DNA from: an uncultured Smithella sp.
Lineage (GTDB): Bacteria > Desulfobacterota > Syntrophia > Syntrophales > Smithellaceae
DNA length: 64,000 nt
NCBI GenBank assembly: GCA_964632255.1
Contig: CAZWCA010000004.1
Span: 489 to 64,488 of the forward strand
Direction of reading: 5' to 3'
In this document: piece after piece, positions 6,696-54,047 of the stretch
Layout: each line of letters starts with the position of its first letter
How positions within the stretch are numbered: position 1 is the first letter of the stretch
Program-made: the position numbers and the translations under genes
The notes under the pieces: model-generated
The model's input: the letters and a program-made list of their open reading frames with translations, nothing else
Told to the model about the DNA's origin: nothing
Database searches by the model: none

Positions 6696-7004
6696 TCAGG
6701 CAAAAAGGTCAACAATTGACTCTCCCACCATTTTTCCGGCAATGTCTTCTCCACTAACGTTGTATGTGCCTTTCTCCACCTGACTTTTTATTTCCTGTAT
6801 TTTTTCTTCACGAACGTCAGGTAATTGAGACAACGTATTTTTTATTTGCTGGATATCTTTTGCCTGGGTGGAAAGATTAACTTTTTCTTCCGTTATTGTC
6901 GCCGCACCGGCATTTTGCTTATCAGAATTGACGACGTAGTTATCGTTTTTCTGATACTGCTGAACCATTTGCGAGCTTAAATCTTTAACATCGGAAATTT
7001 TCAT
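6696..7004 (-). CDS. flgM: Anti-sigma-28 factor FlgM
   Basis: 102 aa. The C-terminal IQEIKSQVEKGTYNVSGEDIAGKMV resembles the FlgM sigma-28-binding helix region. It is preceded by a sigma-28 promoter. Confidence 0.8.
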   Translation of the reverse strand: MKISDVKDLSSQMVQQYQKNDNYVVNSDKQNAGAATITEEKVNLSTQAKDIQQIKNTLSQLPDVREEKIQEIKSQVEKGTYNVSGEDIAGKMVGESIVDLFA

Positions 7005-7035: not shown

Positions 7036-7063
7036 CTATCGGCAAAAATAGCAAATAACTTTA
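7036..7063 (-). promoter_or_regulatory. sigma-28 promoter for flgM(-flgN-flgK-flgL)
   Basis: Minus strand reads TAAAG-N15-GCCGATAG (plus strand ctatcggc 7036-7043, cttta 7059-7063), about 30 nt upstream of the flgM ATG. Confidence 0.7.
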
Positions 7064-10975: not shown

Positions 10976-11689
10976 TTAAGCCAATTTGCCTATTCTATTG
11001 GTCGAAATTTTATCCAGGTCGGACATAGTTTGAATTATTTTTTCATATGCCTCAAAAGAACGATGACCGCCCATCATCTCCACCATTTCTTTCATTGCAT
11101 TGACATTGGACATTTCCAGATAGCCGCCCGATACTCGACCGGAATCTTTTTTTATTCCGGCATTTCCATTATCAATAAATTGCCCTTCGGCACCCCGAAT
11201 AAGTTGATCGGGATAAGCAAATGAAACGATTTTTAATTTTCCCGCCATATTTCCATCAACCCGGATAGTGCCGTCGGTATCTATATTTATTTGTGAACCG
11301 TTGATGACTATCGGTCCGGATTGACCCAAGACCTTTGCTCCGTTTTTTGTCACCAACTCCTTATTTTTATTAATAACAAAGCTGCCGTTGCGGGTATAGG
11401 CAGTGCTGCCGTTACTTTGTTGAATTGAAAAAAAACCGTCGCCGTCAATTGCTGCATCCAGTTGATTACCGGTACGATGGATAGTGCCCTGAGTAAAATC
11501 AGTGGTAATTGATGTTGTTCCCAAGCCGGCCCGGGCTCCTTCTTGAGCCTGCCTTCCCTTCATCGCATAATAAAGATGTTCTGATTTAAATCCACTGGTG
11601 GAGATGTTGGCAAGATTATTAGCTATAAAATCCAACTGAGTCAGCTCTCTTGAGCCGCCGATAGCAATTTCTCTAATATCGTAACTCAT
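10976..11689 (-). CDS. flgF: Proximal rod protein
   Basis: NNLANISTSGFK at the N-terminus and GYLEMSNVNAMKEMVEMMGGHRSFEAYEK at the C-terminus. It lies upstream of flgG. Confidence 0.88.
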   Translation of the reverse strand: MSYDIREIAIGGSRELTQLDFIANNLANISTSGFKSEHLYYAMKGRQAQEGARAGLGTTSITTDFTQGTIHRTGNQLDAAIDGDGFFSIQQSNGSTAYTRNGSFVINKNKELVTKNGAKVLGQSGPIVINGSQINIDTDGTIRVDGNMAGKLKIVSFAYPDQLIRGAEGQFIDNGNAGIKKDSGRVSGGYLEMSNVNAMKEMVEMMGGHRSFEAYEKIIQTMSDLDKISTNRIGKLA

Positions 11690-11720: not shown

Positions 11721-11736
11721 TGCAATAGATGTGCCA
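11721..11736 (-). promoter_or_regulatory. sigma-54 promoter for flgF operon
   Basis: Minus strand TGGCAC-atcta-TTGCA, an exact match to TGGCAC-N5-TTGCW, about 32 nt upstream of the flgF ATG. Confidence 0.75.
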
Positions 11737-11929
11737 TATGATTTTCACCGATCATCATGAATGGAATATCCGCAATAAGCAATTTTCGAAATCGATCTAT
11801 GGTCAATTATTAAAAGATATCTAGGGTTTGCATGGCTTTAAAAAATTATTAATTAAACCTGATTGAAAAATAAGGAGTAGGAAATAAAGTGCCGGAAGGA
11901 AATTTTTTCCTTTTTAAGATTAAGAATTT

Positions 11930-12208
11930 TTATCTTTGATTTTCATTGATTGAATAAACGAAGGCAAGAATTTCAGCTACGGCCCGGTACAATTCCACCG
12001 GAATTTCAGCACCGACCTTTAATTTACTCAATACCTGGATTAAGTCGGGATCATTCTTGACGGGGATGTCATTGTTCTGCGCTATTGCGATTATTTTCTC
12101 TGCAATAAGACCGCGTCCGCTTGCCGTTACTTTCGGAGCATTATCCTTTGCACTGTCATACTTTATTGCAGCAGCCAGAGTTTGTTCCGGTTTCGTCTGT
12201 TTTTTCAT
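11930..12208 (-). CDS. Stand-alone FlhB C-terminal (FlhB-CC) like protein, YlqH/FhlB-domain type
   Basis: The 92-aa protein aligns to the flhB product of this window after its NPTH site. LAAAIKYDSAKDNAPKVTASGRGLIAEKI...IPVELYRAVAEILAFVY aligns with HLAVAVKYDPENMMAPKVVAKGANLIAEKI...IPEDLYRAVAEVLAFVY. The NPTH motif is absent. Confidence 0.85.
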   Translation of the reverse strand: MKKQTKPEQTLAAAIKYDSAKDNAPKVTASGRGLIAEKIIAIAQNNDIPVKNDPDLIQVLSKLKVGAEIPVELYRAVAEILAFVYSINENQR

Positions 12209-12219
12209 AGTTCCTTATA

Positions 12220-12360
12220 CAATGTCATTGACTTAAGGGTCATTCCCGCATTTTTTTGGCGAGAATCCAGGAATCACCGAACATGGATGCCCGACAAGAA
12301 CATTCGGTACCCGACAGAAAATTTCGGGTATGACACGAGGTGCTTAAGTCAATGACATTG
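12220..12360. mobile_element. 141-bp MITE-like element with 18-bp perfect terminal inverted repeats and a 9/10 flanking direct repeat
   Basis: Left inverted repeat caatgtcattgacttaag (12220-12237); right inverted repeat cttaagtcaatgacattg (12343-12360). Flanks are gttccttata (12210-12219) and gttccttaca (12361-12370). The interior has small hairpins (acccgacagaaaatttcgggt) and no ORF. Confidence 0.6.
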
Positions 12361-12365
12361 GTTCC

Positions 12366-13523
12366 TTACACAAAAAAATTGACCAAATTATCAGCGAAAA
12401 AAGATTGACTTGATAAAAATTCTTCCTTCTTCTGCATAAGCCCTTCTTCCTGAATACAATCAATATAGCCGACCTGATAACCGGTCTTCGCCAGTGAATT
12501 TTTAAGTTTATCGAGATCACTGCTGATTAAATTTTTGACTTCTTCTTTTTCACATTTGATTACGCAATTGAAACTTCCTTCACGAACATTTGCCTTGACC
12601 GCAATCTTCCCTAAGCAATCCAAGTCCAAAAAAATGGCGACTGAGCAGGAGGAAAATTTTTTTATCGCCTCGGGATTTTTTCCCTCCGGAGTAATAAATA
12701 TATCCGCCAAACGAAAACCATCGGCCAGGGCTATTGGAATTTGCAACATCAATCCATTTTCACTCTCCTGAAAAACCGAATTGATTATCTGATGTACTTC
12801 GAGAGTGTTGATTGCGTCATCAGTGAATGACGCGATATTGACAAGCTTCGCCATGATTCCGTCATCAAGCTTCGGGTTTTCCCTTAGAATAGCATTTATG
12901 GAAATTGCTATTTTTTGTAATAAAGTTTTTAAATTATCCTCCTGCGGATTTTCCATTCCCGCTTCAACCATGCCGGCGACAAGTTGTTTCAATGAATTTC
13001 CCTGAATTAAACCGATTCGGGAAACAAACTCTTTTAAAAATAAGGGATTATTCATAGTGCGTGGTGAAAATATGACTTTTTCAAATAATTTTATTAATTT
13101 TTCAAGATCACTTTTAAAAATTGCCGACGCCGGTTCTCCGGAATGAAAAAGTTTGGCAAGTCCGGCGAATTTATCAATAACCTGCAAAAATGATTCGGGA
13201 TTCATCCTCCATTGCAATAATTTTTCATTAATTTGCGCATTATTTTGACTTTTTCTGTCGATAATATTTAAAAAAATTTGCGGCTGCAGATTGTCGACTC
13301 TTACCAGTAGTTTTTCGCCTCTATTCAAAGGAATATCGCTTATTGCCGAAGCCTGCTGATTCTTCCAGGCAAGGATATATTTGTTGCCGGCCAGCTTTTC
13401 CAAAACAGTTGCTTCGATGGTTTCTCCCAAAACCAGCCCCGAAAGAGCTCCATTGGAACGGACTGTTGCTACGTTACTTTCAATTGTGATGTTGTTGGCT
13501 TGAGATATTGATGTGATAAACAT
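12366..13523 (-). CDS. Second FliK-like protein (hook-length-control-type C-terminal domain)
   Basis: The C-terminal SVAIFLDLDCLGKIAVKANVREGSFNCVIKCEKEEVKNLISSDLDKLKNSLAKTGYQVG parallels the canonical FliK motif seen in the 29400..31079 gene (ITLDPPSLGRLEMDVTVRNGKVDVVLVADNKDVQQTLNIHIDKLKGGLQNQGLTI). Confidence 0.55.
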   Translation of the reverse strand: MFITSISQANNITIESNVATVRSNGALSGLVLGETIEATVLEKLAGNKYILAWKNQQASAISDIPLNRGEKLLVRVDNLQPQIFLNIIDRKSQNNAQINEKLLQWRMNPESFLQVIDKFAGLAKLFHSGEPASAIFKSDLEKLIKLFEKVIFSPRTMNNPLFLKEFVSRIGLIQGNSLKQLVAGMVEAGMENPQEDNLKTLLQKIAISINAILRENPKLDDGIMAKLVNIASFTDDAINTLEVHQIINSVFQESENGLMLQIPIALADGFRLADIFITPEGKNPEAIKKFSSCSVAIFLDLDCLGKIAVKANVREGSFNCVIKCEKEEVKNLISSDLDKLKNSLAKTGYQVGYIDCIQEEGLMQKKEEFLSSQSFFADNLVNFFV

Positions 13524-13987
13524 CAGGTATTCTCGTTTTTAATGCGGGAAAGATCAATAATCAGCGCAATTTCAGCCTGGGTAAAGCCGGTTTTGCCCGC
13601 TATTTCCTCTTCTGTACAGCCATCATTGATCATATTTATTACTTCTGAGTATTTATTTTGAGAAATGTCGGCGGAATCCTTGATTCTTGCTTTTGTATTA
13701 ATTTCTTTTTCCTTTTCCAGAATTGCTTTTACCCTCTTTTCTTTCAGCTCAAGTTCCAAAGCTATTTCTTTCAAGGCAAGTCTGCTTTGTTCCATAGCTT
13801 GCAAAAATTTATCGGCATTGGTTTGAGAATCAGTAATTAAAGTTTGTAATTCCGCAGTCATTTTCCGCAGTGGCTCCAGAGGGGGATTTTTAATATTGGC
13901 ATTTACCCGCCAAAGTAGAATAATTACCGCTGTAAATAAAATGAAATCGAGAATAATCTGCAAAAATACGGGATCGAAAAAGTTCAT
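13523..13987 (-). CDS. Membrane-anchored protein with coiled coil and small C-terminal HTH-like domain (DUF2802-like)
   Basis: N-terminal TM segment (ILDFILFTAVIILLW). The C-terminus is DGCTEEEIAGKTGFTQAEIALIIDL. From memory, DUF2802 proteins sit next to FlhB-like genes in other flagellar loci. Not verified. Confidence 0.45.
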   Translation of the reverse strand: MNFFDPVFLQIILDFILFTAVIILLWRVNANIKNPPLEPLRKMTAELQTLITDSQTNADKFLQAMEQSRLALKEIALELELKEKRVKAILEKEKEINTKARIKDSADISQNKYSEVINMINDGCTEEEIAGKTGFTQAEIALIIDLSRIKNENT

Positions 13988-13989
13988 TC

Positions 13990-14298
13990 TTAAACCTTAA
14001 TATTGATATTTTCGCCTTCACCTTCGAAAACGCTGTCTTCGCCTGCAACGATGGTTTCTTTTGCATGACGTTGATCTTTACTTTTTCGTCCGCTTTCGTG
14101 TTCTTCCTTTTCTTTTATGAAGGTCTTTTCCGACTCTTCCGCTTTTTTAATCTTTTCTTTTAAAACGCTATCCTGCTCGGATAAATCAAGGGCAAAATAC
14201 CGTTGCTGCATATCCGGATTTTGCTGCTGAATTTGTTGAATTTTTTCTGCTATACTTGATTGGAGAATCACTTGTTGTGTATCTATTGCCCTGACCAC
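13990..14298 (-). CDS. Small highly charged hypothetical protein
   Basis: GTG start with a GGAGGTG RBS 6 nt upstream. 102 aa, Gln-rich N-terminus (IQQIQQQNPDMQQ), Lys/Glu-rich centre. No recognisable family. Confidence 0.5.
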   Translation of the reverse strand: MVRAIDTQQVILQSSIAEKIQQIQQQNPDMQQRYFALDLSEQDSVLKEKIKKAEESEKTFIKEKEEHESGRKSKDQRHAKETIVAGEDSVFEGEGENINIKV

Positions 14299-14386
14299 GA
14301 TACACCTCCGACTTTTTTTTCCATGAAAAACAGGAGTTTTAATATTAAATCGTCAGAATAGCAGAATTTCTTAAATTCCTTTCCAA

Positions 14387-15166
14387 TTATTTCTTTATTC
14401 GATAGGGAAAACTAATAGAAATATTACTAAAGCCTTCCTCATTAAAAAAGTTAATTATTGCCTGATACTTATCAAAGAGCATCAGAGATAACAAAATTCC
14501 CTGATTAACGGCATCGGATACTTGATGGGAAACCGAATCCAAATTTTCCATTAAAGCCGCAAAATCAGTTGAAGGTTTGGAATTTATCGAGCTCTTAATC
14601 AATATACTTATGTATTTATCATCGTGATCCGTCTGAATAGTAAATTCTTTAAGCCGGCTTTCCCGCGCCTGAGTCATTGCAAAGCGAATAATTCTCCAAA
14701 AAGCCAATGACAAATCCGCCGTGTTCCCTTTAAATTCGGGAAGATCCTGATCTAATTGAATATCTTTTTTTATTTCATGCTTAAAATCCAGATAAAAATC
14801 AACAAAGCGCATTTCCGCCGCCAGTAATTGGGAAAAATTAATTCTGTCTTCATTTTTTGCGGCAAGTGCATAAAACTTACTTGCAACATCTTTGAACATA
14901 TCGAAGAAAGAATCGGATTCCTGACTGACGGCCCGGATATCCGTCCGGATGCGCTGCAGATCATCAGCCATTCCCGCCGCTACATCAGGATGATTTTCTT
15001 CCATCTTTTTTATGATATTTTCAATACGGCGCTGCAAAAGTTTTGACCTGCCCATTATACCGTTTAAAGGATTGGCAAAATTATGTAAAATACCGGGGAT
15101 GAGTTCATCAATAAAAGTTGCTGAAAAATCTTTCTCCAATGCCCGGTATATTTCGCCTTTATCCAT
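14387..15166 (-). CDS. Soluble HisKA-type protein with H-box but no recognisable ATP-binding boxes (pseudo-kinase or phosphatase candidate)
   Basis: H-box LHNFANPLNGIMGRSKLL. The region where the N-box is expected reads LSLAFWRIIRFAMTQA (no Asn). I found no DxGxG or GxGxG motifs in the C-terminal 90 aa. No TM segment. Confidence 0.55.
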   Translation of the reverse strand: MDKGEIYRALEKDFSATFIDELIPGILHNFANPLNGIMGRSKLLQRRIENIIKKMEENHPDVAAGMADDLQRIRTDIRAVSQESDSFFDMFKDVASKFYALAAKNEDRINFSQLLAAEMRFVDFYLDFKHEIKKDIQLDQDLPEFKGNTADLSLAFWRIIRFAMTQARESRLKEFTIQTDHDDKYISILIKSSINSKPSTDFAALMENLDSVSHQVSDAVNQGILLSLMLFDKYQAIINFFNEEGFSNISISFPYRIKK

Positions 15167-15239
15167 TTGCTGCTCTCCTTATTTTTTTAACATCAATCGG
15201 TCTTTATCTTTGCCGTCCGATTCACTTTCCGTGAAAGAC

Positions 15240-15875
15240 CTACATAATAACATAGTTAGTAAAGTAAATATTTTTAACAAAGCCGGCGCCCAGCGTTTTA
15301 TTTAATTCCTGTAATAATTCTTTTTTCAAATTATTTCGTTCTTCAATGGATCTTAAGGCTACGGCGCTTCTCCCTGTTACAGTTTGGTATATTATATTTC
15401 TAATGTCTTCTCTATTTTCTAATCCGGCAAGGTTTTCCGCCGTATTTACCACAAGAACGAAATCACATGCCAGAATTTTGCTTTTACCTGCTTTATCCTT
15501 TAAATCAATTAAAAAATCTTTAAAATTTACGCTTTTTTCTATTACGGGTTGGACTGCAGCCCGTCCATTTACCATATCAGCATCTTGAAATTTCTTCTCT
15601 ATTACAATTGACGCTGTTTCTGTGGGCGCTTTGGATTGTTTTGGTGCGATATTTGTTGTTCGGGCAAAATAAAACCATAAAAAACCAACCATGATGAGAA
15701 CCACGATTACTACAGGAGCAAAAATTACAAGAAGCTTATTTAAAGCCCATTTTTCCGAAGTTACAGGAAGCGGCAATTCCGGGTCAATCGGAATTGTGTC
15801 ATCTATCAAATCTATGTCAGGCAAATCTATATCAGGCAGATTCTCAATGACATCTAATTTTGCTTTTTTTACCAT
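15240..15875 (-). CDS. FliL-family paralogue
   Basis: One TM segment (LLVIFAPVVIVVLIMVGFLWFYF). The C-terminal FliL signature is FKDFLIDLKD...ILACDFVLVV...REDIRNIIYQ...KELLQELNKTLG..FVKNIYFTNYVI. The N-terminus has a LPDIDLPDIDL repeat. Confidence 0.7.
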   Translation of the reverse strand: MVKKAKLDVIENLPDIDLPDIDLIDDTIPIDPELPLPVTSEKWALNKLLVIFAPVVIVVLIMVGFLWFYFARTTNIAPKQSKAPTETASIVIEKKFQDADMVNGRAAVQPVIEKSVNFKDFLIDLKDKAGKSKILACDFVLVVNTAENLAGLENREDIRNIIYQTVTGRSAVALRSIEERNNLKKELLQELNKTLGAGFVKNIYFTNYVIM

Positions 15876-15890
15876 AGCTATAGGAAAAAT

Positions 15891-16613
15891 TTATCGGGAA
15901 AATTTGACCGAACTTCTTAATCTTAAAACAGCCTGCGCATGAAGTTGACAAACCCGCGATTCAGTTAAATCCATTACTCTGCCTGTTTCCTTCATGGTCA
16001 ATTCTTCATAATAATAAAGTGAGAGAACAAGTCTTTCTTTTTGCGGAAGATCATCGATTGCATTTTTCAACTTATCTTTTGTTTCCATTGTCATGAGCAG
16101 GTTCAGCGGATTTCCGGAACTGATTTCTTCCATAATATCTTCACTACTGAAGCGCTCCAGATAATCAGGCGGTAAATCTTCAGTCGAGATCAGAGAAATA
16201 TATTTGGCCTCGTCCAATAGTTTATAATATTCTTCCAGTGTAATATCCAGTTCCCGGGCGATCTCCTCCTCAGCCGGTGCTCTTCCTAATTTTTTTCTCA
16301 GTACCTCCATTGCATTTTCCAGTTTATTGTCTTTGCTTCTGGTCGCCCGGGGCACCCAATCTTTAGCTCTTAATTCATCAAGCACAGCTCCTCTGATCCG
16401 GAAGCTGGCATATGTTTCGAATTGCACATTCCTTGCTTTATCAAATTTATCCAAAGCGGACATTAAACCCATAATACCGACATTGATTAAATCTTCTTTA
16501 TCCGCCGAATCAATGGGTAGCTTAGCAGCCAGACGCCCGACAATATTCTTTACCAGCGGCGCATACTGCATTATGAGTTCATCCCGTTTTTTCTTACCCG
16601 CCATTTTTATCAA
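15891..16613 (-). CDS. fliA: Flagellar sigma factor sigma-28
   Basis: Region 2 LINVGIMGLMSALDKFD...FETYASFRIRGAVLDELR and region 4 LVLSLYYYEELTMKETGRVMDLTESRVCQLH. The ORF start at 16613 is TTG. ATG 16604 or 16571 are alternatives. Confidence 0.92.
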   Translation of the reverse strand: MIKMAGKKKRDELIMQYAPLVKNIVGRLAAKLPIDSADKEDLINVGIMGLMSALDKFDKARNVQFETYASFRIRGAVLDELRAKDWVPRATRSKDNKLENAMEVLRKKLGRAPAEEEIARELDITLEEYYKLLDEAKYISLISTEDLPPDYLERFSSEDIMEEISSGNPLNLLMTMETKDKLKNAIDDLPQKERLVLSLYYYEELTMKETGRVMDLTESRVCQLHAQAVLRLRSSVKFSR

Positions 16614-17508
16614 TGATTTTTTCCCAGAAGAAATTTATGCCGCAGTCTTCATTATCCAGTATAGCCTCACTGCATATCTTCTCGGCAATTGCCGCCAGAC
16701 ATTTCGCAGAAGGAGAATTAGGATAAATTTCGGCCACTGCTTTTTGTTGTAAAACAGCCTGTCTTACCTTTTCATCCAATAACACATGCCCCAAATACTC
16801 AATAGTTAAATTTAAAAATTGATCTGTTGCATTGCTTAATCTTTCATATACTTCTTTTGCTTCGAAAGAATTTCTCACCATATTGACAATCAGGCGGAAA
16901 CGCTTCTTGGCATGGCGCTGGTAAAGAACTTTAATTAAAGCATAAGCATCGGTTAAAGCGGTCGGCTCCGGAGAGGTAACTACAATTATCTCCCGCGCGG
17001 CCATATTGAAATACGTGACGTTTGACGAAATACCGGCGCCAGTATCAATTAATATATAATCAAACAACCTGTTGAGAGAATTCAATTCATCAATCAGTGT
17101 TAATTTCTGACCACGGGAAAGATCCGTCATTTCCGGAATTCCCGAAGCTGAAGGCAGGATTTTGATGCCGCCCGGTCCCTCTACCAGGGTTTCGGAAAGC
17201 ATTCTTTCCCCGCTTAATACATGATACAAATTATAATGGGAATTAATTCCAAGAATAACATCGATATTGGCAAGCCCGGCATCAGCATCCAATATCATTG
17301 CTTTCCTGTTCGTTTTGGCAAGAAGATAAGCAAGGTTAGCCGTTATATTTGTTTTGCCCACTCCGCCCTTTCCGCTGGTAACAGACATCATCCGTACTTG
17401 CGATGCAGAACAATTTTTGTATGTGCTTTTACTATTCACGGCCTCGCTTTTAGAAGATTTTTCCTTTTTTCTTAACGTGCGAAGAGCCTCTGCTTGATCG
17501 GTTCCCAT
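16594..17508 (-). CDS. flhG: MinD/ParA-family flagellar number regulator FlhG (YlxH/FleN)
   Basis: Deviant Walker A VTSGKGGVGKTNITANLA. The ORF opens at TTG 17526, but ATG 17508 has an AAGGAGA RBS 5 nt upstream. Confidence 0.9.
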   Translation of the reverse strand: MGTDQAEALRTLRKKEKSSKSEAVNSKSTYKNCSASQVRMMSVTSGKGGVGKTNITANLAYLLAKTNRKAMILDADAGLANIDVILGINSHYNLYHVLSGERMLSETLVEGPGGIKILPSASGIPEMTDLSRGQKLTLIDELNSLNRLFDYILIDTGAGISSNVTYFNMAAREIIVVTSPEPTALTDAYALIKVLYQRHAKKRFRLIVNMVRNSFEAKEVYERLSNATDQFLNLTIEYLGHVLLDEKVRQAVLQQKAVAEIYPNSPSAKCLAAIAEKICSEAILDNEDCGINFFWEKIIDKNGG

Positions 17509-17527
17509 ATATCTCCTTGGCAACAAA

Positions 17528-18685
17528 TTAATGAATAACTTTTCTCATAATTAAATCAGCCATTCTTTGCGGCGTCACCTCTTCAATATCCTGCGGAACA
17601 TTTTGTCCGCAGGTCAAAAAGCTGACCGGTTTTCGGGCCTTATTGATCACATCATAAAGAATGCCGAAACGCCTTGATTCATCTACCTTGGTGACGATCA
17701 GATTATCATAATCAAAAGGAGAATATTTCTTAACTGTATCCAGTAAATTATCTTCGCTGGATGTTGAGCTGATAAGGAGATTGGTTTCAATATTTTTACT
17801 TTGCAGCATCGAATCCATAAGACCAAGATAGCCGTCATCAACACAGCTCCTGCCCGGAGTATCAATCAGGATAATATCCTTATCCGCTAATAACTGCAGT
17901 GATTTTTGAAATGATTCTTTTGTCGATGCTACTTCCATCCTTATCCCCATTATCCGGGCATAAGTTTTCAGTTGTTCGATGGCCGCAATACGAAAGGTAT
18001 CAATGGTAATCAAACCGATATTCTTTTTTTTCATTAACGAATAGCGTGCGGCAAGTTTGGCCAGAGTTGTTGTCTTCCCGACACCTGTTGCACCGATATA
18101 AGCTTTAATTCGTTTTTCTTCCTTTACTTTGTTTATTGCCGGCATGGATTTAATAATAAATTCCTCGGCAATACGGAAAACTTTTTCTTCTGTCAATTCA
18201 TCCAGAGAGGATATTTGCGGTCCGATCTCTTCCATGATGCCGCAGGCGCTCATACGTGTAAACCCGCAGGTAAGCAGATGATAATAAATCCGGGACTGAA
18301 TATCCTGCTGTCCTTTTCTTTTTCGCGCTCCCAGGATATCAAAGAATTTGTCCATTGTTTCTTTTAATTCTTCCAGCTCTCCGCCCAATGATTTCCGTCT
18401 TTGCTCCGACTGGATAATTTCTTTTAATTCCCCTATTTCCTGACGAATAACTTTACAAACATCCTCCCTGCTTTCTATTGAACGGCTGTTTTCGGGCGGC
18501 AAAGGATGGAAACGCTTCTCCGGCTGATTTACCCTTTCATCACGGGCTGCCACTACCTCTAATGTGGAGTTGACCGTATTATTTAACTTCTTTGATGAAA
18601 GAATAATTGCATCAGGACCCATGTCTTCCTTTATTTTAGCCAGAGCTTCACTGATGCTGGATACTTCGTAACGTTTAACCTGCAT
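17528..18685 (-). CDS. flhF: SRP-type GTPase FlhF
   Basis: G1 IGATGVGKTTTLAKLAA, G3 DTPGRS, G4 TKVDES. It lies downstream of flhA. Confidence 0.92.
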   Translation of the reverse strand: MQVKRYEVSSISEALAKIKEDMGPDAIILSSKKLNNTVNSTLEVVAARDERVNQPEKRFHPLPPENSRSIESREDVCKVIRQEIGELKEIIQSEQRRKSLGGELEELKETMDKFFDILGARKRKGQQDIQSRIYYHLLTCGFTRMSACGIMEEIGPQISSLDELTEEKVFRIAEEFIIKSMPAINKVKEEKRIKAYIGATGVGKTTTLAKLAARYSLMKKKNIGLITIDTFRIAAIEQLKTYARIMGIRMEVASTKESFQKSLQLLADKDIILIDTPGRSCVDDGYLGLMDSMLQSKNIETNLLISSTSSEDNLLDTVKKYSPFDYDNLIVTKVDESRRFGILYDVINKARKPVSFLTCGQNVPQDIEEVTPQRMADLIMRKVIH

Positions 18686-25743: not shown

Positions 25744-26253
25744 TTATTGAATTACGAATTCGGTAAAATATACTTTGATAATTTTTCCTTTTGTCAAATA
25801 CCCGCTTGACCGCAGTGCGATTTCATCCCGTAATCGCTGTTTACCGATAGGGTCCATCATTTCTTTGAAATTTTTTGATGAAAGCAGATCAAGAATGCTA
25901 TCCCGCACTTTAGGCTTAATAATATTTAATTCGTCTACTGTTGATTGATCAGATAATTCAAATTGCATTATTACTTTTAAATATCTTTCTCCTTCATTAT
26001 CATTAAGATTGACAATAAAAGGATCAAGAGGCCAAAATATGGCTGCCGCGGGTTTTGCCGATTCCGCCTGCTTTTTATCTTGAGCAGGCGAATGAGACTT
26101 GAACAGGAAAAAATACGCCCCTGCCCCGCCGCCGCCCAGAACAACCACAGCTATAACGGCGATAATAATCCATTTCATTGCCGAGCCTTTTTTCTTTTCC
26201 AGAGACTGCTCTTCTATTTCTTGTTCGTCTTTTTCATCTTTTGAATCTGCCAT
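25744..26253 (-). CDS. fliL: Basal-body associated protein FliL
   Basis: One TM segment, then DPFIVNLNDNEGERYLKVIMQFEL...KPKVRDSILDLLSSK...GKQRLRDEI...VYFTEFVIQ. Confidence 0.92.
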   Translation of the reverse strand: MADSKDEKDEQEIEEQSLEKKKGSAMKWIIIAVIAVVVLGGGGAGAYFFLFKSHSPAQDKKQAESAKPAAAIFWPLDPFIVNLNDNEGERYLKVIMQFELSDQSTVDELNIIKPKVRDSILDLLSSKNFKEMMDPIGKQRLRDEIALRSSGYLTKGKIIKVYFTEFVIQ

Positions 26254-53681: not shown

Positions 53682-54047
53682 CCGTTAATCAATCATAAGA
53701 TTAAATTATAGAAATTTTTGATCAGCTCTATACCTATCTTTATAAAAAAAATAAAGATTTTTCGTAAAAGTAATACCAAGAATTCAATATTATTTTTCAA
53801 TATTTGGAAATCGACAAAAACCATAAATTACTTAAATAAATATTCTTTCCTTGAGATCTTAGACGAACCAGACAAGAAGAACGTCAAAAAACCTTCGTTT
53901 TTTTTAGATTTAAGTAAAACAGTGTTATTTTTCTGACATTAATAGGGTTTTACTATTGTATTTTGACCACTTTTATCCTAAAATGCCGCCCGGCTTTGGA
54001 TTAAGGCGGCAGTTCTTCAACAATATTCATAATCAAATGGACATGAA

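Follow-up and report, generated by a model that had tools for sequence, protein, structure and literature searches.

Why would a bacterium with one ordinary fliK and one ordinary flhB keep a second FliK-type switch domain, and next to it a second, free-standing copy of the FlhB fragment known as FlhB-CC? The question is raised by a flagellar locus in a metagenome-assembled genome of an uncultured Smithella-like bacterium (order Syntrophales), from which a stretch of 64,000 nucleotides was analyzed. This whole stretch is called the window here, and all coordinates are positions in it. Six open reading frames on the minus strand fill positions 11930-15875, between fliA (15891-16613) and flgF (10976-11689). 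A first-pass annotation, made from the DNA letters alone, had described them as one six-gene accessory module whose FliK/FlhB-like pair could be a decoy, a timer or a second switch. We find that the six genes are genuine and conserved, yet form two separate units rather than one module. The pair is the already named, functionally unexplained fliK2-flhX, here within a probably late flagellar operon and in a lineage from which no description of it existed. We hold the gene identities and the operon structure with high confidence; what the pair does is a matter of graded probability, and is treated as such below.

The second FliK/FlhB pair

The 385-residue member of the pair, FliK2, carries a Flg_hook domain (PF02120, residues 297-359) that scores 37.8 bits against a cut-off of 29.8, and 40.2 bits in the scan of the whole genome. 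In its predicted structure, with an overall predicted local distance difference test (pLDDT) score of 63.7, a variable Ser/Asn/Ile-rich N-terminus is followed by a small beta-barrel (residues 35-88), a helical region (91-246) and a T3S4/Flg_hook domain (250-360), the last with local pLDDT values of 72-90. Foldseek matches this C-terminal domain to PscP (5cuk; probability 1.00, template modelling score 0.59 on the target, root-mean-square deviation 1.9 A over 68 columns) and to the C-terminal domain of FliK (2rrl; probability 1.00). For the N-terminal two-thirds, Foldseek returned nothing credible and a profile search found no sequence match in the PDB. An exhaustive search of representative sequences yielded 135 FliK2 clusters at E<=1e-10, mostly full-length and 370-390 residues long, and a profile of diverse FliK2 sequences retrieved almost solely close Smithellaceae relatives from a word-indexed protein collection.

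The second member, FlhX, is a 92-residue homologue of the cleaved part of FlhB. It matches the last 75 positions of the Bac_export_2 model with 72.3 bits, and TIGR00789 (flhB_rel) with 100.1 bits, below the cut-off of 117.35; this cut-off is strict for the lineage, since none of 301 genomes of the phylum reaches it. FlhX is 54% identical to residues 269-349 of the FlhB encoded in the window, with KPEQT in place of NPTH (residues 270-273 of that FlhB), and it has no CN strand. Furthermore, FlhX is colinear with the cleaved CC polypeptide, which is chain B in the structures of Aquifex and Salmonella FlhB-C (PDB 3b1s and 3b0z), starting at chain residue 4-5. Its residues A24, P25, A78 and L81 align with A286, P287, A341 and L344 of Salmonella FlhB, which we take to be the docking pocket for early substrates and for FliK; the roles of these residues are said to have been described by Evans and colleagues in 2013.

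Across the whole genome, the Flg_hook and the FlhB-type profile have exactly two matches each, and the window also encodes the bona fide FliK and FlhB, together with a canonical FliL (25744-26253; PF03748, 82.3 bits). The genome thus has a single flagellar system plus an extra FliK2/FlhX pair. In this respect the first-pass annotation was right: it had proposed six same-strand genes between fliA and flgF, which are all present as reading frames (Table 1), and an extra pair beside one ordinary fliK and one ordinary flhB. Its assignments of a FliL paralogue, a DUF2802-like protein, a FliK-type C-terminal domain and an FlhB-CC copy without NPTH agree with Pfam and NCBIfam profiles, folds and alignments, and the Flg_hook/T3S4 domain that it had left to be checked in the 385-residue protein was found by profile and by fold alike.

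Such a pair has been named before. In Pseudomonas putida KT2440, PP_4328-PP_4329 are called fliK2-flhX, their transcription depends on FliA, and their function was stated to be uncharacterized (Leal-Morales et al., bioRxiv 10.1101/2021.08.29.457346). There as here, a small FlhB-CC-like protein comes immediately after a Flg_hook protein, the flagellar cluster has a DUF2802 gene (flrD/fipA) close by, and the FliA dependence seen in P. putida has its counterpart in a promoter motif of the sigma-28 type. The arrangement is different, however: the P. putida pair is a separate operon, whereas here it closes an operon of four genes that lies between fliA and flgF, and one product of this operon, a protein of 102 amino acids (p102), has no described counterpart in P. 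putida. Stand-alone homologues of about 90 residues that correspond to the FlhB fragment after NPTH are also known as FlhX (HP1575) in Helicobacter pylori and YlqH in Bacillus subtilis. In H. pylori, FlhX is able to stand in partly for a deleted FlhB-CC, according to Wand 2006 and Smith 2009 (both as cited in the preprint above). The partners FliK2, p102 and the FipA-like protein discussed below, as well as the late promoter, do not appear in the description of the H. pylori protein, as far as it is relayed there.

Two units within the block and their distribution

The six genes can be divided by their promoters and spacing. FliL2, the FliL paralogue, starts 15 nt past the fliA stop; the spacer between it and the next gene, which encodes a degenerate histidine-kinase-like protein (HK-like), is not conserved and contains no promoter motif in the related loci compared. 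A sigma-28-type motif stands 5' of p102 (Table 1), and 10 related loci have a motif of this type at the same position, in which TAAG or TAAAG stands at similar spacing before GACGAT or GTCGAT. The same pattern is found 5' of flgM (motif 7038-7062; flgM 6696-7004) and 5' of the chemotaxis operon cheR-cheD-HDOD-cheX (motif 53810-53834, minus strand); flgM and the cheR-cheD operon are classic sigma-28 targets. Behind this motif the genes are packed tightly, with a gap of 2 nt between p102 and the FipA-like gene and an overlap of 1 nt between the stop of the latter and the start of fliK2. At the other end, the flgF promoter motif, kept as TGGCA[CT]-N5-TTGC in 9 related loci, sets the downstream boundary of the unit. 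Given the sigma-28-type promoter before p102 and this tight spacing, the block is therefore a tail of the fliA operon followed by a late four-gene operon. Judged from these motifs, the predicted Unit 1 consists of FliL2 and HK-like after fliA, without a conserved promoter of its own, and the predicted Unit 2 consists of p102, the FipA-like gene, fliK2 and flhX behind a conserved sigma-28-type promoter. Such a promoter suggests that Unit 2 is expressed late, after completion of rod and hook.

Close homologues carry the labels Smithella, Smithellaceae or Syntrophaceae. Gene order was compared in 15 loci taken from further species at the levels of genus, family and order; in all 15, the Flg_hook gene stands immediately 5' of the FlhX gene on the same strand. 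As far as the contigs reach, 14 of them have the order flhB-flhA-flhF-flhG-fliA-FliL2-HK-like-p102-FipA-like-FliK2-FlhX-flgF-flgG-flgA, and in the fifteenth (L047) p102 was not detected. FliK2 is present in the same 18 of 41 related genomes as FlhA, plus one genome with a contig break inside the cluster. In the relatives sampled, FliK2/FlhX strictly co-occurs with the flagellum.

A wider set of 80 loci was collected by scanning species-representative genomes for the HK-like protein, and is biased towards that gene. The canonical order is kept in 48 of these loci, HK-like stands alone amid unrelated genes in 27, and the remaining 5 hold partial sets; all six genomes checked from the "alone or partial" loci are without FlhA. 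The two parts of the block can also be found apart in flagellated genomes. For example, FliL2-HK-like-FipA lies beside fliH-fliI and cheA in three of them, the main cluster of one of these three (G333) reads fliA-p102-FliK2-FlhX-flgF and is separate from FliL2-HK-like-FipA, and that of another (G335) reads flhB-FliK2-FlhX-flgF, with p102 not detected.

Do the six genes nevertheless function together, as the first-pass annotation supposed? The joint conservation that it had asked about was found, and the identical six-gene order in the loci of the order and in 48 of the 80 HK-like loci is what one would expect of a single co-functioning module. The same comparison splits the block, however. HK-like is alone in 27 loci, is found in genomes without FlhA and is absent from the operons of other families; the conserved internal sigma-28 promoter divides the genes, and the rearrangement in G333 separates FliL2-HK-like-FipA from p102-FliK2-FlhX. 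With two units that differ in phyletic pattern, the single module does not hold, and we consider one shared function of all six genes very improbable.

Unit 2 reaches well beyond the order. Of 301 genomes sampled evenly across the phylum, 175 match an FlhB-type profile, and about 107 of these have a second match in an open frame of about 90-150 amino acids. Of 30 such FlhX loci sampled in the phylum, 21 have a FliK2-like gene immediately before the FlhX gene, and most have flgF-flgG downstream. The arrangement fliA-[FliL2]-small ORF-FipA-like-FliK2-FlhX-flgF-flgG-flgA recurs in many families among 20 longer regions of the phylum, and one distant genome reads fliA-CheY-72 aa-DUF6115-Flg_hook-Bac_export_2-flgF. 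Outside the phylum, Undibacterium (Betaproteobacteria) has fliS-fliT-Flg_hook(397 aa)-Bac_export_2(98 aa)-ycgR.

A possible role at the export switch

In the canonical switch, FlhB-CCD holds the export gate in its early mode, docks early substrates and is needed for their export, until FliK ejects it by means of a folded switch domain and its last five residues and so turns export from hook to filament proteins; FlhX is not mentioned in that work (Chevance et al., mBio 2026, PMC13344023). The FliK2/FlhX pair resembles the FliK/FlhB-CCD switch of Salmonella in having the same two domain types, a conserved tail after the T3S4 fold and, in FlhX, the residues of the docking pocket. It differs in that the partners are separate soluble proteins: FliK2 has no polar, disordered ruler region, and FlhX has no tether to the membrane gate and needs no autocleavage. 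We put the chance that FliK2 and FlhX act at the export switch after hook completion at about even.

If they do, the following sequence of events may be proposed. Hook completion would release sigma-28, and FlhX would then be made as a free, trans-acting, "pre-cleaved" CCD with an intact docking pocket. It would move into the CCD site on FlhB just left vacant by the action of FliK, or bind the usual ligands of that site. FliK2, and perhaps p102 by its tail alone, would engage FlhX through switch domain and tail in order to load, hold or remove it, and the pair would tune or re-set the export-specificity switch without measuring any length. Since H. pylori FlhX, in the account given by the preprint cited above, serves an FlhB without CC, and FliK action leaves just such an FlhB, the simplest mechanism would be that FlhX re-occupies this site or competes for it. 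By this analogy, re-occupation of the FlhB-CN site is a possibility that we entertain tentatively.

The pocket could also serve away from the gate. Early substrates dock on the pocket of FlhB-CCD, the pocket residues are kept in FlhX, the promoter is of the late sigma-28 type, and FlhX is basic (pI 8.9) beside five acidic proteins; these features would suit a soluble, late decoy that mops up leftover rod- and hook-type substrates as well as FliK and never docks on the gate, with FliK2 and p102 as its cytoplasmic ligands or antagonists. A sponge of this kind would sharpen the early-to-late transition and shield new basal bodies from stray FliK. However, the H. pylori protein, again as relayed in that preprint, replaces a deleted FlhB-CC, so FlhX-type proteins can dock at the gate, and it is not obvious why a simple sponge should require a T3S4 partner of its own, coupled to it in translation across phyla. 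We regard the decoy as rather unlikely.

A different question is whether FliK2 is a second ruler, which would be secreted, measure another axial structure such as the rod encoded downstream, and flip a second switch in the form of FlhX. Three features would fit: in most phylum loci flgF-flgG-flgA come right after the pair, the first 30 residues of FliK2 could be read as a type III export signal, and FliK2 hardly varies in length within the order (383-391 residues, bar shortened copies such as those of 335 and 370). Across the phylum, however, FliK2 varies from 255 to 699 residues beside near-identical rod genes, and in Undibacterium the pair sits with fliS-fliT and not with rod genes. The sigma-28-type promoter places expression after rod and hook are complete, and flgF has a sigma-54 promoter of its own. 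In addition, the first 250 residues of FliK2 are Leu/Ile-rich, whereas the N-terminal part of the true FliK is rich in Asn, Glu, Ser and Lys, polar and disordered; the beta-barrel and helices of the model suggest that the body of FliK2 is folded and not a ruler. With late expression and a predicted folded, hydrophobic N-terminal part, the timer offered by the first-pass annotation and the second ruler alike become improbable.

In this genome the two genes of the pair are separated by a miniature inverted-repeat transposable element (MITE). Its ends are perfect 18-bp terminal inverted repeats, and the duplicated TAAGGAAC recreates the ribosome-binding site of FlhX. Eleven further matches are spread over 10 contigs of the genome, including one at another place on the contig of the window, and six of them cover nearly the whole element at 77-93% identity; its RNA is predicted to fold at -54 kcal/mol. 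The insertion is recent, because relatives have only about 5-60 bp between fliK2 and flhX and the MITE occurs at this spot in this genome only. It could hint at locally relaxed constraint, and apart from paralogy nothing else favors the view that the pair is decaying, a remnant left over from a duplicated set of flagellar or injectisome genes and now without function. Against that view, the frames are intact at 25% to 71% identity across the order, and the pair is kept across phyla, always with one flagellar system, and lost together with FlhA; we find a remnant hardly credible.

The first gene of Unit 2 may bear on how the pair works. p102 is conserved at both ends, with a motif at the N-terminus and the tail NINIKV at the C-terminus, around a variable middle of low complexity; searches with single sequences and with a profile found no Pfam family and no PDB relative. 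A weak match to FeoB_Cyto, seen in 6 of 13 members, is below the cut-off and compositional and was discarded. The small ORF before the FipA-like gene is 70-110 amino acids long in the phylum, with a poorly conserved middle, and ends in hh-D-[IVT]-x-[IVA]-COOH in 13 of 13 loci, which in the order takes the form I-N/D-I-K/R-V. FliK2 homologues have tails such as VSIVA, LSLTV and FLDLIV, FliK2 of the window ends in LVNFFV and the true FliK in NISLFA. A tail h-[DNS]-h-x-[VIA] is thus common to FliK, FliK2 and p102. Among the 2495 genome ORFs of >=150 amino acids, only 12 end in [ILVMF][DNS][ILVFT]x[ILVA], a count that includes FliK and FliK2. The tail also resembles the FlhB-CN strand KADVIITN, which ends at the NPTH cleavage site. 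That p102, FliK2 and FliK share a tail which is like the FlhB strand before NPTH may be a new point. As a candidate homologue of FlhB-CN, p102 was rejected: hhalign against full-length FlhB gave a probability of 0.7% and an E value of 0.08, with a weak alignment on the CN linker.

Could p102 and FlhX be a two-gene, "pre-split" copy of the autocleaved cytoplasmic domain of FlhB? In this case the C-terminal strand of p102 (hh-D/N-h-x-h-COOH) would replace the FlhB-CN strand ADVIITN and complete the FlhX fold by beta-strand addition. Drawn from motif likeness, this is a long shot.

Several points weigh against the role at the switch proposed here. Early expression, too, could come from read-through out of the fliA operon, and the "RNA" runs containing this sequence were not used, being unstranded metagenome contigs sized like DNA runs. 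A structured MITE of 141 bp may uncouple fliK2 and flhX expression in this genome. The FliK2 model is of moderate confidence (pLDDT 63.7), so that "not a ruler" is a reading of this model, and the first 30 residues, Ser/Asn/Ile-rich and poorly charged, are compatible with export of FliK2. As for p102, its profile comparison with FlhB is not significant, which leaves a resemblance of motifs and not demonstrated homology, and it cannot be essential to the pair because the fliK2-flhX pairs of beta- and gammaproteobacteria have no p102.

Neighboring genes and the meaning of the locus

The remaining member of Unit 2 has an N-terminal hydrophobic (transmembrane) segment at residues 3-28, a coiled coil and a C-terminal DUF2802/DUF6115 domain (DUF2802 30.3 bits, under the cut-off of 33.5; DUF6115 28.8 bits, over the cut-off of 27). 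FipA, which has this architecture, is a partner of FlhF in three gammaproteobacteria, and the survey that accompanied its description covered gammaproteobacteria only (eLife 2024, PMC11620751). In Vibrio parahaemolyticus FipA, residues G110, E126 and L129 are 100% conserved, and the interaction with FlhF through DUF2802 needs G110 and L129, E126 being dispensable (PMC11620751). The window protein shares with FipA/FlrD of V. parahaemolyticus, Shewanella putrefaciens and P. putida a predicted transmembrane segment, a coiled coil, a DUF2802-like domain and a G-x15-E-x2-L triad, as well as a gene position downstream of flhF-flhG-fliA; flhF and flhG lie at 16594-18685, just upstream of fliA. In 13 diverse homologues, G123 and E139 are invariant, and at the third position (L142) 11 have L and two have M, with spacings of 16 and 3. 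The window protein differs in coming from Desulfobacterota and in scoring slightly under the DUF2802 and over the DUF6115 cut-off. From this likeness, the FipA-like protein is expected to be a membrane partner of the FlhF encoded upstream.

In the putative Unit 1, FliL2 matches PF03748 with 53.4 bits (cut-off 24.6) over residues 116-210, behind a single transmembrane segment near residues 45-70. It is barely alike in sequence to the canonical FliL. Its gene is syntenic in the order and is found in several other families of the phylum. The N-terminus of FliL2 (window 15740-15875) has acidic repeats, LPDIDLPDIDLIDD, before the transmembrane segment, an extension that the canonical FliL does not have.

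HK-like had been called an "H-box-only" HisKA protein. The H-box stands, but "only" does not, since a full kinase fold with a DHp helical hairpin and an alpha/beta CA-like domain is predicted (AlphaFold, pLDDT 79.8). By profile, HisKA scores 18.8 bits, under the cut-off of 26.9, and HATPase_c gave no match. Foldseek matches the model to HK853, DivL (4q20), ChpT (4fpp, 4fmt) and RetS (6dk7) at E values of 1e-10 to 1e-8. ChpT, DivL and RetS are kinase-fold proteins deficient in ATP binding. HK-like shares with them the predicted hairpin and CA-like domain and differs in having no detectable sequence-family membership and motifs of its own, HNFANPLNG and FKHEIKK. In an alignment of 13 homologues, H28-N-F-A-N32-P-L-N-G and F128-K-H130 are invariant, and no conserved N-box Asn, DxGxG (G1) or GxGxG (G2) is present. 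In HisKA kinases, the acidic residue after the phospho-acceptor His is tied to autophosphorylation and the Asn at H+4 to phosphatase activity; in HK-like the residue after His is Asn and not acidic, and the Asn at H+4 (HxxxN) is kept. These residues suggest that HK-like works on a response regulator, as its phosphatase or as its partner in phosphotransfer. A CheY-type response regulator of 127 amino acids occupies the slot after fliA in L170 and L174, from two families of the phylum, and in L048, whereas in Syntrophales this slot is filled by FliL2 and HK-like; in the equivalent operons of other families the slot of HK-like holds a CheY gene or nothing.

The HK-like gene was found only in the order Syntrophales, normally inside the flagellar cluster, and was absent from all 20 longer phylum regions examined outside the order. 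It occurs in 26 of the 41 related genomes, and 8 of these 26 lack FlhA. Its retention after loss of FlhA and of the flagellar cluster points to a role beyond the flagellum, and HK-like is not strictly flagellar. In many Smithellaceae and other Syntrophales genomes without FlhA (L060-L065, L082-L092, L056) it is a lone gene amid unrelated neighbors, and L100 retains it alongside flhG, fliA and che genes.

Downstream of the pair, a motif GGAAAAAATTTCC..CGGCA directly follows the FlhX stop. Several related loci have it in the same place. It precedes the sigma-54-type flgF promoter by about 150 nt and may act as an enhancer-binding site for that promoter or else as a weak terminator.

Table 1. Positions, strands and supporting evidence of the features between fliA and flgF.
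Feature	Position in window	Strand	Basis
FliL paralogue (FliL2), 211 aa	15240..15875	-	PF03748 match, synteny
Degenerate histidine-kinase-like protein (HK-like), 259 aa	14387..15166	-	Fold and alignment
Sigma-28-type promoter motif TTAAG-N15-GACGAT, 5' of p102	14349-14373	-	Conserved position in related loci
p102, 102 aa, small charged protein	13990..14298	-	Alignments; no family match
FipA/FlrD-like protein, 154 aa	13523..13987	-	DUF2802/DUF6115 matches, residue triad
FliK2, 385 aa	12366..13523	-	PF02120 match, model, Foldseek
MITE, 141 bp, between FliK2 stop and FlhX start	12220..12360	.	Sequence and genome copies
FlhX, 92 aa, stand-alone FlhB-CC (CCD) homologue	11930..12208	-	Profiles, alignments
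Motif GGAAAAAATTTCC..CGGCA directly 3' of FlhX stop	11880..11910	-	Recurs in related loci
Sigma-54-type promoter motif TGGCAC-N5-TTGCA of flgF-flgG-flgA operon	11721..11736	-	Conserved in related loci

A side result of this analysis is a Syntrophales-specific pseudo-kinase of the flagellar cluster that outlives the flagellum. For the pair itself, the window alone is one more example of a known, unexplained arrangement, and it yields predictions on who binds whom and via which strand. In very many bacteria the FlhB lock has a free second copy, FlhX, encoded next to another switch-domain protein, FliK2, and in Desulfobacterota this pair is part of a conserved, probably late operon and travels with a small protein that bears a FliK-type tail. 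If p102 and FlhX are indeed a pre-split copy of the FlhB cytoplasmic domain, FliK-type tails would flip the switch via strand displacement at the CN/CCD joint, and the operon would be a soluble, reversible lock, in which p102 loads or stabilizes the free CCD and FliK2 unloads it. A switch that is now held to be irreversible could then be re-armed or buffered.

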